In this document: in pieces, positions 10,163 through 32,144 of the stretch
How the letters are laid out: every line of letters begins with the position of its first letter
Numbering within the stretch: position 1 is the stretch's first letter
From: a virus
Lineage: Duplodnaviria; Caudoviricetes
Virus record (IMG/VR): IMGVR_UViG_3300025066_000007
DNA: 64,000 bases
Strand: one strand, 5' to 3'
Made by a program: the position numbers and the translations under genes
Notes under the pieces: generated by a model
What the model saw: only the letters and a program-made list of their open reading frames with translations
Database searches by the model: none
What the model was told of the DNA's origin: nothing

Positions 10163-10838
10163 TTATATTGTAATTTCACCTTTGACGAACCTACTTAGCT
10201 TTTGAGTTTTTCCGGTTCGATGATCGGTCACCTTGTCTCGCTGAACTTGATAAGTCCTTATCTTATCTCCTCTCATTCCAGAGCCAACCTGAGAGGCTCT
10301 CAGCTCAGACCTTCGTCTGCTGGCTGCGCTCCTTTCGATCTCATATAGCTTAGCTCGAAGAAGCCTTAGAGCATAGTCTTTGTTCAAGTGTTGTGAACGC
10401 TCTGATTCGCATCGAATGCTTATTTGTGTTGGAATATGTTTCAGCTGAACGGCAGAGTCAGTTACATTTCTATGCTGCCCGCCCGCTCCAGATCCACGGC
10501 AAGTCTTCCACTCAAGGTCTTTCTTGTCGATCTTTACTGATGCTCTTTTTGGCTCTGTTAGAATTGCAACCGTTATAGTCGAAGTGTGAACTCTGCCTCG
10601 TTTGTCAAGGGGAGAAACTCTTTGCCAGCGATGGCCTCCTGCTTCTTTCTCAAAGATCTTTAAAGCGTTCTTTCCTTCGATCAAAGCTATGCTAATTCCT
10701 GGGCGTGATTCTATTATTTTCAGGCTAAAGATAATTTCGGCGGCAGACCTTGCCGTAAATGCCGAGTTGATCTTTAACAAGAAGTTTGCTTTCTTTTCCG
10801 CCTTCAGCGGCTCTAATCTCTAATATAATAGAATTCAT
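10163..10838 (-). CDS. Class I peptide chain release factor-like protein (no domain 1), expressed via +1 frameshift; about 224 aa
   Basis: AAGGAG...ATG at 10838 gives MNSIILEIRAAEGG...NYL; +1 shift at CTT TAG C into SLKIIESRPG...GGHRWQRVSPLDKRGRVHTS...GAGGQHRNVTDSAV...IRTY. Confidence 0.85.
10724..10733 (-). other. prfB-like +1 frameshift site TAT CTT TAG C
   Basis: Joins two halves of a release-factor fold; matches the prfB UAU CUU UGA C site except that the stop is UAG. Confidence 0.75.
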
Positions 10839-27571: not shown

Positions 27572-28262
27572 GCTTGGCGACCCACTTTGACTTTAGATTT
27601 CTATTTGCCAATACAAGTGGAAGAAAATCAAGAGGAACCTTCGTTACCATTATGGAAAACGGACGTTTAGCAATCTCCTTCATTATAATCTCACTTAGTT
27701 TCTCGTAACCAAATGGTGCAGCCTCTGCTCCCATGGCTCGAATCTCTGCCATCTTATCGGCAAGCATATCATCCAAACACTCTGCCGGCCCTAGCCTTTC
27801 AAAAACTGTTTTTCGAACAACTTTGTCCTTATCTTTCTTCAAAGATCGCAATACTTTTATAGAGCAGCCTTTAGCCGCAATTCTTCGCTCATTAATTGTC
27901 CCGGACTTTGCTAGCTTGTCAAGGACTTTTATATCCGAGTAAAAGCCATTAGACAAGCAGATCAGCCTAACAGGCTCTGGGCCTGTTAAGAGAGCGCTAT
28001 CTCCGATAGTAGGATACTTTTTTAGTAAGCTAAAAACGAAATCTTTAGCATAGTAGGAGCTCCACCTATGAGAGCCTAAGAGAGCATCATTATAATTCTT
28101 TTTAGAAGCCAGAAGATATCTCGCCTGCTCCTCCGAAGCTCCGCTCTTTAAGGAGTCTACCCTTGAGCGAAAGCTCTGCCAGTTGCCATAGGTGCTAAAT
28201 ACACTTTTTATCTCCTTTACAAATTCGCTATTACTATTACTATTGCTCACAGCATCTATCAC
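27543..28262 (-). CDS. HEAT-repeat-like hypothetical protein
   Basis: DKDKVVRKTV and DKMAEIRAMGA repeats. Confidence 0.6.
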   Translation of the reverse strand: MIDAVSNSNSNSEFVKEIKSVFSTYGNWQSFRSRVDSLKSGASEEQARYLLASKKNYNDALLGSHRWSSYYAKDFVFSLLKKYPTIGDSALLTGPEPVRLICLSNGFYSDIKVLDKLAKSGTINERRIAAKGCSIKVLRSLKKDKDKVVRKTVFERLGPAECLDDMLADKMAEIRAMGAEAAPFGYEKLSEIIMKEIAKRPFSIMVTKVPLDFLPLVLANRNLKSKWVAKLVQQRMEAS

Positions 28263-29085
28263 CTTCCGTTTCTAGTTCATTCATATTTTTTACAAAAAAA
28301 CCCGCAGCATTCTTGTGACCTCCGCCACCAAACTCCAGAGCTATAGTAGACACATCCATCCTATTCTCCTTTGACCTTAATGAAAACCTAAATTTTTCTC
28401 CGTCGAAGTAGTACACCGCAGCAAATTCTTCATCTTCACATAGAATGTTTCCTATTTCCGATTGAAAAGACGAAGAGTTTACTGCAGGAACATTTTCCCC
28501 TGCAATATTTAGACGATGAACATTTGAGAGCATCATCTTCACCAGAGTTTCTTTGTACCTGAGAATATCCCCTCCAGCAGAAACAACCTTGCTCCACGCT
28601 GGAGAGCACGGCTCCCCAAGCTCCAGGCTCAAGCGGTTCCATTCGGAAAAGCTTTTTTTATGCGAATCAACTACAGACAATACCTCTTCGGCCTTATCTA
28701 GCTCCCAAGTCCACAAGTCTCTGTCTTGAATATACCTAAGAAGAGGTGGGACAGGCTTTCTTTTAAAGAGAAACTTCCATGCCAAAACTGCTCCAGATTG
28801 GCTCATATCGAAATGGCAATACTCCAAATCTCCGCAGCTTTCTTGGGAAGTCTTATGGTGGTCAATGACCGTTAGCGTGTTCGCTTCCTCTTCTAACTCT
28901 TCCAATATAGCCCTAGGATAACAAAAGTCAACAATAAATACATCGCGTCCAGTGACCACCGGAGGCTCGTCGCTATGACGAACCGGAACATATTTAGCTT
29001 TCGCTCCATACTTCTGATAAAAAGCCCACGCTGCGCCGAAGCCATCTGGACAGCCGGCATGATAAAGAACCGTTACTCTTGACAC
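28240..29085 (-). CDS. DHH/DHHA1-family phosphoesterase
   Basis: YHAGCPDG, VDFCY, IDHHKT, DRDLW, GGGHKNAAGF; GTG at 29085. Confidence 0.9.
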   Translation of the reverse strand: MSRVTVLYHAGCPDGFGAAWAFYQKYGAKAKYVPVRHSDEPPVVTGRDVFIVDFCYPRAILEELEEEANTLTVIDHHKTSQESCGDLEYCHFDMSQSGAVLAWKFLFKRKPVPPLLRYIQDRDLWTWELDKAEEVLSVVDSHKKSFSEWNRLSLELGEPCSPAWSKVVSAGGDILRYKETLVKMMLSNVHRLNIAGENVPAVNSSSFQSEIGNILCEDEEFAAVYYFDGEKFRFSLRSKENRMDVSTIALEFGGGGHKNAAGFFVKNMNELETEGDRCCEQ

Positions 29086-29086
29086 T

Positions 29087-30117
29087 CTACACTTCCTTCG
29101 GGGAATAAGAATACACAATATCCTCAATTAAAATACAATTAGCGTTTATCACTTCTGTTATAAAATCACACATAATGTTTAAGCTTGAGAAGGATCGAAT
29201 TAGACCTTCATGAATAAGCTTAAACTTTCCAAACTCTTTTAAGATATCACACTTGCTAATAACTAAATTAGTTGTTCCCGTAAGATTAACTGCCTTAACC
29301 AGATAGTCGAGATTCAGCCAATTAACCTTTCTTGGCCTTCCTGTCGTTACTCCAAACTCTTCTCCCATTTTAGCGATTACAGACAAGTCCTTATCTTCAA
29401 GCAAACTGCTTGGAAATCTCGGATCTTCCCCAGACTTCGTATCATATATCTTTGCAGCGCCCCAAATCGCATTAACCCTCTGAGGCGGAAACCCCAGAGA
29501 GCAAGCGCCATAAGGCAGGGTGATAGAAGAAGTTACATAAGGATAAAGGCCATGATCAATATCAAGCCAAACGCCCTGCGCTCCTTCACACAAAAGCCTT
29601 CCCTCTAACTTCTCATCCCAAATATATTTCGGATCCAATACATCTTTTGCCAAGATTCCAATTCTAGCCGCTTTATCCGCATAGCAAGGGGCTATTCCCC
29701 TGCCCGTAGTTCCAAGCCTTGGAGCCAAATGCTCCTTATCATAGGCTATTTGAGAATCAGTTACGATATGACATTTTGGAGAAACCTTGATCAGCGTAGT
29801 ATCAAATCCATTTTTATCCAAGTAAGAAACCTCTTCTTCAAAGGAGCTTGGATGCAAGATGCACCCAGGGCCAATAACAGAAGTTACTCCATAAAATACA
29901 CCAGATGGAATTAAGTGAGTTTTATACTTTTCTCCATCGACCCATACGGTGTGTCCTGCGTTATTACCCCCTGCCCATCTTGCCACAACATCATAGTTGC
30001 CACTACTCGCCAGATGTGCAGTAATCTTTCCTTTTGCTTCGTCACCTTTTTATGTTGAGATTGACCCGAAGGTCAACCCCAGCATAAACCGACGACAATA
30101 TCTGCCTTATCGATCAT
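29087..30117 (-). CDS. purA: Adenylosuccinate synthetase, interrupted by a 32-nt bypass element (about 332 aa joined)
   Basis: ORF1 MIDKADIVVGLCWG (30117-30076) + DEAKGKIT...GGNNAGHT...GTTGRGIAPCY...EGAQG...YPYVTSS...GVTTGRPR (from 30043). Confidence 0.9.
30044..30078 (-). other. T4 gene 60-like translational bypass (hop) element
   Basis: GGT TGA CC TTCG GG TCA ATC TCAACATAAAAA GGT: matched Gly codons, stop codon and UUCG hairpin. Confidence 0.8.
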
Positions 30118-30143
30118 GCTGAATTCTCCTTTTTGATTTTGGT

Positions 30144-30848: not shown

Positions 30849-32144
30849 TTACTTCTTGCCAGTCAGCCCCTCCATTCCTCTTTGCTCTCTGCGCGTTCCC
30901 ACTCCACGCTCGACGGCTGATAGACCCCTCTTTCGCTTTCTTTGACCGGAAATCTTCTGGCGGTAAAGCCTTCGTTTGGCTGGAGACTTTTCTTCGCGCC
31001 TTATCTCTGCCATCATTCTCCTCTGCTCTCTTAGATTTAAGAATTCCGGATCTCTTTGAGAAAGCGGAGAAATAGTGTTTTGATCATTAGGGTTCGCAAC
31101 GTAGAATAACGCTCCGTCTGATTTTCTCATTCGTATGTTATCTACGGCAAAAAATTCAGAAGAATTAAAAGTAGGTTTTGCCGACTTTGCCTCAGCGGGC
31201 ATGCCCAATATAAGTTCCATTTCAGGATTTACTGCCTCATCTTTCTTGTAAAGATCTCCGATCCTTTTCTTCCAAGTTGAAGAAAGGGCTGCATACTCAG
31301 GCATAGTCTCTGGAGTTCTTTTCGCTACGTTTTTGTAAAGAGAGTCTCTGTGAGACAAGTTAAGGCGACCATCACCTGTTGGAAACTTGACATAAGCACT
31401 GAGTAGTGCGTCAGAAGTTGCAGTTGCAGTTTCTGTCTGCTCTGCTTGAGGGACAGTTTTTGCGGCAGGAGAAAGTTTCTGCAGCTTAGCCAATGCCTCT
31501 GTTGGCTTCATATCAGCTGGTACGGCAGAAGTCGTGTTTTCTTTGGTAAGCTTATTCCATGCCGCAGAAGTTAACGGACCCCACCATCCATCAGTTTTCA
31601 GGCTCGCTCCTAGTTCGTTCAACTTCTTTTGAACTGCAACCCAGGGACCCAGACGCTTCTGCTTGGGAGCTTCTTTTTTCTCAGACTCTTCTTTGGATCC
31701 TACTGCCTGCCTTCTCCACAGCTTTACCTTTTCGTCTAATATTTGAAGATACTCCTTATCCTTAGGTCGCTGAGCTCCACTTGCATCTGAAACGCTTTTC
31801 CATTCATTATTTCGCGCCTTCCTCCATAACACATCTGATTGGCGAAGATTATTATCATGCCTCCACATGACATAGAGAACAATTTCATCTCCATCTAAGG
31901 CCTTCTCTGCTATCCCATATTCTTCGCTGTTTTTGCCATTTTTACGATTGTCCAAAAACCCTGCCCAGGCAAGCTCTGCGCCAAAGAAAGCTCTAGCCGG
32001 AAGTGGCTCCTCTATTGTAGATCTAGGCTTGTTGGCTCGATGCTCAAAAAAAAGTTCGGCAAAAACTTTTGCCTCATATTCTTTATATCCAGACTTACCC
32101 AGTGCCTTTGCCAATTTCAATAGTTCAGTTTTTGTATTACTCAT
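30849..32144 (-). CDS. Hypothetical protein with peptidoglycan-binding-like motif
   Basis: VQKKLNELGASLKTDGWWGPLTSAAW; N-terminal LLKLAKALGKSG helix. Confidence 0.6.
   Translation of the reverse strand: MSNTKTELLKLAKALGKSGYKEYEAKVFAELFFEHRANKPRSTIEEPLPARAFFGAELAWAGFLDNRKNGKNSEEYGIAEKALDGDEIVLYVMWRHDNNLRQSDVLWRKARNNEWKSVSDASGAQRPKDKEYLQILDEKVKLWRRQAVGSKEESEKKEAPKQKRLGPWVAVQKKLNELGASLKTDGWWGPLTSAAWNKLTKENTTSAVPADMKPTEALAKLQKLSPAAKTVPQAEQTETATATSDALLSAYVKFPTGDGRLNLSHRDSLYKNVAKRTPETMPEYAALSSTWKKRIGDLYKKDEAVNPEMELILGMPAEAKSAKPTFNSSEFFAVDNIRMRKSDGALFYVANPNDQNTISPLSQRDPEFLNLREQRRMMAEIRREEKSPAKRRLYRQKISGQRKRKRGLSAVERGVGTRREQRGMEGLTGKK

Follow-up and report, generated by a model that had tools for sequence, protein, structure and literature searches.

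To our knowledge, bacteriophage T4 gene 60 has been the only well-studied case of programmed translational bypassing in bacteria and phages for more than 35 years. A nascent-peptide signal of about 46 upstream codons gives the T4 hop an efficiency of roughly 50%. The take-off region reads GGA UAG CC UUCG GG CUA UC and the gap is 50 nt, as the initial annotation of the locus described here had quoted it and as found in AF158101. The gene 60 homologues found in 2022 all represent the same element in the same topoisomerase gene; gene 60-like cassettes have been reported only in Topo2L genes, and the bypass cassette has been called unique (Manning & Atkins, bioRxiv 10.1101/2022.08.31.505936). In T4 mobA/gene 60, the insert renders its carrier immune to the endonuclease and the gene stays functional through bypassing, and the Topo2L cassettes vary in having GGU/GGC pairs, UGA stops, an extra C-G pair and gaps down to 20 nt (bioRxiv 10.1101/2022.08.31.505936).

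We found a gapped gene for a PurA-like protein (adenylosuccinate synthetase) in a jumbo phage of the Caudoviricetes (the window, a stretch of 64,000 nt from IMG/VR record IMGVR_UViG_3300025066_000007). From its sequence and from its relatives, we consider that this gene is probably read by programmed translational bypassing, a ribosome hop encoded by a small mobile cassette. The features of the window allele (WIN) are as follows.

30126..30131, minus strand: Shine-Dalgarno sequence AAGGAG, 8 nt upstream of the ATG, read directly
30076..30117, minus strand: exon 1, ATG plus 13 codons, MIDKADIVVGLCWG, corresponding to PurA strand β1 to Gly12 (E. coli numbering)
30076..30078, minus strand: take-off codon GGT (Gly), read directly
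30073..30075, minus strand: TGA stop directly 3' of the take-off GGT, read directly
30044..30075, minus strand: coding gap of 32 nt including the landing codon, from the sequence and allele comparison
30056..30081, minus strand: take-off stem-loop UGGGGUUGACC-UUCG-GGUCAAUCUCA, 11 bp with 2 G.U pairs, ΔG -20.3 kcal/mol
30050-30087, minus strand: possible extension of the take-off stem via UUAUG/CAUAA
30079..30122, minus strand: 5' stem-loop over the start codon and codons 9-13, from folding and comparison
30050..30052, minus strand: TAA in the landing frame, two codons 5' of the landing GGT
30044..30046, minus strand: landing codon GGT, the first GGN past the hairpin
29087..30043, minus strand: exon 2, PurA family, 318 codons plus stop, beginning with catalytic Asp13 and the P-loop (DEAKGK)
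29984..29986, minus strand: GTG, the first mechanical start of the long ORF

The elements that the initial annotation had read from the letters are all present on the minus strand: AAGGAG, the ATG at 30117, 14 codons ending in GGT-TGA and, after 32 nt, the PurA motif resuming in another frame behind a second GGU (GGT 30046-30044, GAC 30043). Decoding resumed at GAC 30043 reads DEAKGK (GAC GAA GCA AAA GGA AAG). Within the P-loop motif WG-DExKGK, the gap falls precisely at the Gly12/Asp13 boundary, and exon 1 is identical at 12 of its 14 residues to the N-terminus of an uninterrupted relative (L004). Gene callers begin the protein at the internal GTG (29986), the first mechanical start, and the resulting protein of 299 aa has lost Asp13 and the P-loop, as the initial annotation had pointed out for this start. 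The take-off codon and the stop had also been placed in a C(UUCG)G stem of 8-11 bp. The hairpin GGUUGACC-UUCG-GGUCAAUC has a fold z of -4.2, equalled by none of 200 shuffles, and the stem reaches 11 bp with the G.U pairs; the 211 kb virus contig that includes the window has no other C(UUCG)G hairpin whose stem reaches 6 bp. In the extension of this stem, a G-C pair in the window allele is a G.U pair in L002 and L241, and pairing is maintained. The 5' stem-loop competes with the extended take-off stem; L002 and L011 retain it, their differences being wobble-compatible apart from one double change. In the window allele, a cognate GGU is located in the 3' arm of the stem, where it would be masked, and no other GGN exists in the gap before the landing codon. 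Two caveats raised at the outset hold: only 14 codons precede the take-off site, and no SD-like GAG, GGA or AGG is found 5-7 nt 5' of the landing codon in UCAACAUAAAAA. The gap of the window allele is real DNA and no assembly artefact, because the identical 32 nt recur, letter for letter, in at least five assemblies made independently from different samples with different assemblers. The 299-aa gene call of this allele occurs on 15 contigs; five loci were fetched, and all five have the gap.

The exon 2 product matches Pfam PF00709 (E = 4e-77) and PurA structures in the PDB (matches reaching 2e-57); aligned to E. coli PurA (1ade), it begins at the catalytic Asp13. The P-loop GDExKGK with the catalytic Asp13, the NAGHT motif and the overall PurA domain are all found. 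We predict that the product is a short, divergent PurA-like enzyme, because it scores under the NCBIfam equivalog cut-offs. A PurZ of the diaminopurine pathway was rejected, with NF038379 scoring 75.8 bits against a cut-off of 300 and PurZ structures matching at only 6e-13 or weaker. Directly 3' of purA and slightly overlapping it is a DHH/DHHA1 phosphoesterase-like gene (window 28240-29127, minus strand). This pairing is retained in essentially all related loci, suggesting a conserved nucleotide-metabolism module. Two genes upstream of purA, a 431-aa ORF (window 30849-32144, minus strand) has weak endolysin-like PHROG matches (E = 4e-6), and the 210-aa ORF between this ORF and purA has no family match and is syntenic in all relatives. 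In two related loci with short gaps (L250:265-1368 and L101:1718-2893), the gene immediately upstream of purA encodes a protein of 367-391 aa, which in L250 carries the precomputed annotation PF26128 (Gad2, anti-Gabija family).

Relatives were collected by profile-guided scans of viral and metagenome contigs and by look-ups of truncated gene calls, which gave about 170 related loci of marine phages; a blastn search of the locus against 50,697 phage records gave no match. About 112 distinct alleles are uninterrupted (...GL[AC]WG-DE[AGS]KGK), and one of the uninterrupted genes (P0003/L251) has a 14-residue N-terminus matching exon 1 of the window allele. The initial annotation had proposed a search for similar inserts in related phage purA genes, and 15 distinct alleles proved to be gapped at the same Gly12/Asp13 junction, with gaps of 11, 12, 13, 14, 29, 30, 32 or 33 nt. 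The UUCG class is composed of WIN (32 nt, landing GGT), L241 (32 nt, GGC), L002 (30 nt, AGC) and L011 (29 nt, AGC; stem with one extra C-G pair). The short class is composed of L247 (11 nt, GGC), L003 (12 nt, AGT), L101 (12 nt, GGC), L008 and L018 (13 nt, GGC), L061 and L245 (13 nt, GGA), L250 (13 nt, GGT), L050 (14 nt, GGC) and L242 (14 nt, GGT). The remaining allele, L249 (33 nt, AGT), is a hybrid in which the short-class hairpin (UGGGGU/ACCCCA) is followed by the UUCG-class A-rich tail (CAAUAUAAAAAAGU). Since L249 mixes both designs, the two classes are related by descent.

The take-off codon is GGT in every gapped allele; the same Gly codon in the ungapped alleles is GGT (41), GGA (36), GGC (27) or GGG (7). 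A stop directly follows the take-off GGT in 15/15 (TGA in five, TAA in ten). The take-off codon also lies within the 5' arm of a hairpin in all of them, to which the gap contributes the loop and the 3' arm, and the resume codon always follows the stem by no more than a few nucleotides. Because the cassette carries the take-off GGT and the stop along with it, the 15 alleles do not count as independent of one another. Short-class hairpins have the stop in their loop, and their 3' arm (ACCCC) base-pairs with the take-off codon. Eleven alleles end in a GGN landing triplet and four in AGY (L002, L011, L003 and L249); AGY matches tRNA(Gly) at just two of three positions. L002 resembles a 2-nt deletion of the L241-type sequence AAAAAGGC, which destroyed the GGC landing codon. 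Either landing tolerates a first-position mismatch, or the AGY alleles work poorly.

A degenerate pattern for any gap at the junction, run on viral contigs, returned only the known alleles and chance matches in unrelated genes. Exact matches of the hairpin in other viruses were dismissed as chance, and the 28 exact matches in bacteria as an unrelated conserved hairpin. Many MAGs of Solirubrobacterales and Actinomycetota (L209, L211, L213, L215, L221-L223, L225-L227, L229, L231, L233 and L234) contain the 18-nt hairpin GGTTGACCTTCGGGTCAA, set in the conserved context CACTTGAACAG(R)ACA-hairpin-TCAGGTTCAGTTCAAAG and unrelated to purA. This bacterial hairpin resembles a segment of a structured RNA, and Rfam gave no match.

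The gap lengths of the 15 alleles cover all three frame classes, so that only a frame-independent mechanism explains all alleles. Frame 0 of the window allele is closed by TGA, and the TAA in the landing frame (30052-30050), which had been correctly located two codons 5' of the landing GGU, blocks a -1 shift at the take-off site. With resume-frame stops at gap nt 24 in WIN and L241 and at gap nt 15 in L011, a shift at the take-off site is blocked in these three alleles, and L249 has three in-frame stops. Judged from these stops, it would be impossible for a single frameshift or readthrough to join the halves in WIN, L241, L011 and L249. The earlier statement that a simple frameshift or readthrough is excluded thus stands for single events, but a two-step route is formally open in WIN and L241, namely UGA readthrough and then a -1 slip on U AAA AAG (30053-30047). 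The short alleles are readable by separate single events.

Conventional recoding with an inserted peptide would follow these routes. The window allele would yield WG-x-PSGQSQHKK-GDEAKGK, with an 11-residue insertion before the P-loop (ten gap-encoded residues and the landing-codon Gly), and the other alleles would use readthrough alone (12 and 30 nt), a +1 shift (13 nt) or a -1 shift (11 and 14 nt). The dnaX-like A AAA AAG run of WIN and L241, where a -1 slip would lead into the PurA frame precisely at GGY, is in agreement with such recoding, as are the open resume frame of the short alleles and the third base of the landing triplet, which varies like that of a translated Gly codon. However, a separate mechanism would be needed per allele, and the two serial events needed for WIN and L241 are both rare and do not generalise to the other alleles. 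Recoding of this kind is impossible or implausible in L011, which has a resume-frame stop and no slippery run, and in L249 with its three stops. It would also place 3-11 extra residues (3-5 after single-event decoding of the short alleles) between strand β1 and the P-loop, where none of the 112 distinct ungapped alleles has any and Gly12 is invariant, and the AGY alleles would have Ser in place of this invariant Gly. We therefore regard conventional recoding as highly improbable. Re-initiation after the stop was rejected, because no ATG, GTG or TTG is present in the PurA frame from the gap to exon 2 codon 19 (GTG 29986) and starts from there onward lose Asp13 and the P-loop. A reassignment of TGA was also rejected, as TGA terminates 16 of 103 long frames and is a normal stop in this genome. 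As far as the sequences tell, a hop from GGU to the triplet before GAY would be the only single rule that yields the canonical protein in 15/15 alleles.

In the gene-body tree, the gapped alleles are dispersed among the ungapped ones. L018/L029 and L061/L014 are sister pairs of a gapped and an ungapped allele, and WIN, L002 and L003 form a supported clade mixing both gap classes. Monophyly of the gapped alleles is rejected by an AU test (lnL difference 228, p = 0.0003), for a group that was named after the first tree had been inspected. The gap state is polyphyletic. Short-gap alleles whose gene bodies agree at only 55-75% share 85-95% identity over the 5' leader, exon 1 and gap. L241 and L002 are identical at 42/42 nt of exon 1 but at 79% of exon 2; mosaicism is thus present in both gap classes. 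In L018, a 283-aa ORF lies directly upstream of the gapped gene on the opposite strand (L018:2008-2859, minus strand). It matches phrog_3339 'homing endonuclease' (E = 1e-16) and DUF7487, and weakly a TnsA-like nuclease. A copy with 56% identity exists in L061/L062, and short remnants exist in L008 and L245/L246, so that the endonuclease or its remnant adjoins four gapped lineages, all with short gaps (L018, L061, L008 and L245). The endonuclease was not found beside WIN, L241, L002, L011 or any ungapped locus, nor elsewhere in the 211 kb genome. It is decayed or gone in most lineages, and purA is intact. In the short-gap cassettes, the stretch from the endonuclease start to the purA Shine-Dalgarno sequence is a conserved leader (L018:2860-2945; also in L003, L008, L061 and L245). 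This leader contains two nested inverted repeats (CTACTAA..TTAGTAG and CCTTGGG..CCCCAAGG) and could be a divergent promoter or a regulatory RNA.

Exon 2 is open in 15/15 gapped alleles, over 317-327 codons. Its dN/dS is 0.10-0.15 for gapped pairs and 0.06-0.09 for ungapped pairs. Because the cassette moves laterally, the pairwise dN/dS of the gene body partly predates gap acquisition, and for this reason excess changes at conserved columns were also examined. The 112 ungapped alleles define 92 columns conserved at 95% or more; at these, the nine gapped alleles compared have 0-2 changes, all conservative, and the ungapped alleles average 0.40 changes and reach 3 at most. Exon 1 moves with the cassette and would be functionless alone. 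Its overall pS is 0.35 against a pN of 0.10, and in the UUCG class there are seven synonymous codon variants and four conservative amino-acid variants. By these measures, both exons are under purifying selection and the gapped alleles are free of decay; the relaxed selection of a pseudogene, against which the initial annotation had weighed its own reading, was not found in the rest of purA.

These data bear on a dead or dispensable gene, in which a selfish cassette would have broken purA, no full-length enzyme would be made, and the frames would be open because the insertions are recent. The lateral movement of the cassette, by which some acquisitions are possibly recent, is consistent with a dead gene, and gapped alleles have somewhat longer terminal branches than their ungapped sisters (L018 0.11 vs L029 0.053; L061 0.25 vs L014 0.10). 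The apparent 2-nt deletion in L002, which removed the GGC landing codon, points the same way. A dead gene is, however, difficult to reconcile with a stop-free exon 2 that is nearly unchanged at the 92 columns and with an exon 1 that diverged mostly at synonymous sites. In addition, purA is still intact in the lineages where the endonuclease has decayed or been lost, and the WIN-type cassettes have diverged (79-83% identity in exon 1) with the stop, hairpin and landing features all kept. We consider a dead gene unlikely.

Removal of the insert at the RNA level, by excision of the 11-33 nt and ligation of the mRNA ends (a micro-intron or hairpin excision), would be frame-independent too and would tolerate an AGY 3' end. 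Every insert is built round a hairpin at the junction, and jumbo phages often encode RNA repair enzymes. On the other hand, we know of no bacterial or phage splicing system that removes 11-33 nt, and neither an Rfam family nor an intron was found at the gap region. RNA-level removal also leaves unexplained why a stop always follows the Gly codon, why this codon is always in a stem and why the last triplet is Gly-like; bypassing predicts these three features, and splicing explains none of them. Although the gene is present on 15 contigs, a search of 5.8 billion database proteins yielded no joined full-length sequence at about 100% identity; this absence is a weak point, because most runs are probably DNA. 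Taken together, RNA-level removal seems very unlikely to us.

Programmed bypassing, the reading that we prefer, would proceed as follows. Ribosomes would start at ATG 30117 and decode 14 codons to GGU, bringing peptidyl-tRNA(Gly) into the P site and UGA into the A site, within the 5' arm of the very stable C(UUCG)G hairpin. Termination would be slow, and hairpin formation would compete with codon-anticodon pairing because the take-off GGU belongs to the stem; in the short class, where the 3' arm pairs with the take-off codon, the hairpin would compete directly with the anticodon. The tRNA would then detach from the mRNA and remain on the ribosome, while the mRNA slides by 32 nt, which is essentially the hairpin loop, the 3' arm and the A-rich spacer, and the upstream 5' stem-loop could re-form behind the ribosome. 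Decoding in this way would restore the motif WG-DEAKGK in a normal PurA-like enzyme of 332 aa, whose tryptic junction peptide would be ADIVVGLCWGDEAK (junction VVGLCWGDEAK). The gap, exon 1 and the upstream leader behave as a laterally moving cassette. The insert probably breaks the site recognised by the endonuclease, in P-loop DNA that is highly conserved, by analogy with T4 mobA/gene 60. We infer the hop, its efficiency and the endonuclease target; the comparison of the 15 alleles, with their frame-independent gaps, purifying selection and endonuclease association, supports the bypass reading that had been proposed from the window allele.

Several observations speak against bypassing. Only 14-17 codons precede the take-off site, which leaves no room for a gene 60-type nascent-peptide signal, and short peptidyl-tRNAs are prone to drop-off. 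Furthermore, no mini-SD is located 5' of the landing site, and four alleles have an AGY landing triplet. The single-event decoding open to each short allele, the transfer of take-off GGT and stop with the cassette, and a gene-body dN/dS that is partly older than the gaps also weigh on this side.

Aragorn detected seven tRNA genes in the 211 kb contig (G000:C1 173187-207046), for Ala, Asn, Glu, Tyr, Arg (two) and Ser. As none of the seven is a tRNA-Gly, a phage tRNA-Gly driving the hop was rejected, and the hop would use a host tRNA-Gly. The phage also encodes a class-I release factor (window 10163-10838, minus strand; Pfam RF-1 E = 4e-33, PCRF E = 1e-10), which has GGQ and an RF2-like 'SPL' where RF2 has SPF; its ORF seems to require a shift at TAT CTT TAG C. 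This release factor could alter the speed of UGA reading after the take-off codon. A genome-wide bypass scan of the 211 kb gave 436 candidates, mostly spurious, and no other convincing site. The purA site was third by hairpin energy, and the two rows above it are one terminator-like hairpin.

If purA hops, a hairpin with the take-off codon and an adjacent stop would be enough for a hop in bacterial ribosomes. A long nascent-peptide signal and an internal SD would be dispensable, the minimal element being 11-14 nt of stop, loop, 3' arm and Gly-like triplet. Bypassing would then be a general route for selfish DNA to reside inside invariant active-site codons of any gene, and the roughly 15 alleles would be a natural series for sorting the signals needed in take-off, slide and landing. 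Genes of this kind are annotated as N-terminally truncated (299 aa here), without the catalytic Asp, and similar hidden hops may occur in other phage genes beside homing endonucleases. The initial annotation knew of no bypassing in a metabolic gene such as purA, and our full-text literature searches found no report of bypassing in purA.

Among the other described systems, the byps of Magnusiomyces capitatus mitochondria are, in the accounts consulted, short mobile inserts (27-55 nt) in conserved protein genes that are bypassed in translation, and in this they are similar to the purA gaps. As these accounts describe them, the byps reside in a eukaryotic organelle with many copies per genome, whereas the purA phage genome has a single site; an unassigned sense codon, not a stop, occupies the A site in the byps, and the accounts associate no homing endonuclease with them. 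The short-range stop-codon hopping of E. coli, in which peptidyl-tRNA leaves its codon at a slow A site and re-pairs nearby downstream, is comparable to the 11-14 nt purA alleles; such hops are presented in the source consulted as unprogrammed and of low efficiency, unlike the proposed purA hop.

The closest likeness is to T4 gene 60 and its Topo2L homologues. In both, a Gly take-off codon is followed immediately by a stop and matched by a Gly landing codon, the insert is at an invariant residue of a conserved enzyme, and a free-standing homing endonuclease adjoins some relatives and is decayed or lost in others, with signs of lateral spread. As in T4 gene 60, a CC-UUCG-GG stem-loop holds the take-off codon and stop in its 5' arm and the complement of the stop in its 3' arm, a cognate GGU in that 3' arm would be masked, no other GGN precedes the landing codon, and a 5' stem-loop is able to re-form behind the ribosome. 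The GGU/GGC pairs, UGA stops, extra C-G pair and short gaps of the Topo2L homologues recur in the purA alleles, and the window allele, with no endonuclease nearby, resembles the gene 60 lineages that lost mobA. In contrast to T4 gene 60, the host gene is PurA-like and not a topoisomerase, and its coding sequence is not divided between two ORFs. At 32 nt, and 11-14 nt in relatives, the gap is shorter than the 50 nt of T4, and it is little more than the 3' half of a hairpin. There are 14-17 upstream codons instead of 46, a length too short for the nascent-peptide signal, and the mini-SD 5-7 nt before the landing site is missing. Mismatched (AGY) landing triplets, as in four purA alleles, are foreign to T4 gene 60, and the two elements have no sequence homology beyond the CC-UUCG-GG tip. 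The purA-associated endonuclease is DUF7487/PD-(D/E)XK-like, unlike the HNH endonuclease MobA of T4. Bypassing of the gene 60 type has so far been reported only in topoisomerase genes, and purA, which most likely hops, is a different host gene associated with a different endonuclease family. On balance, we lean towards the view that the purA inserts may be a second, independent family of homing-endonuclease-borne bypass cassettes.
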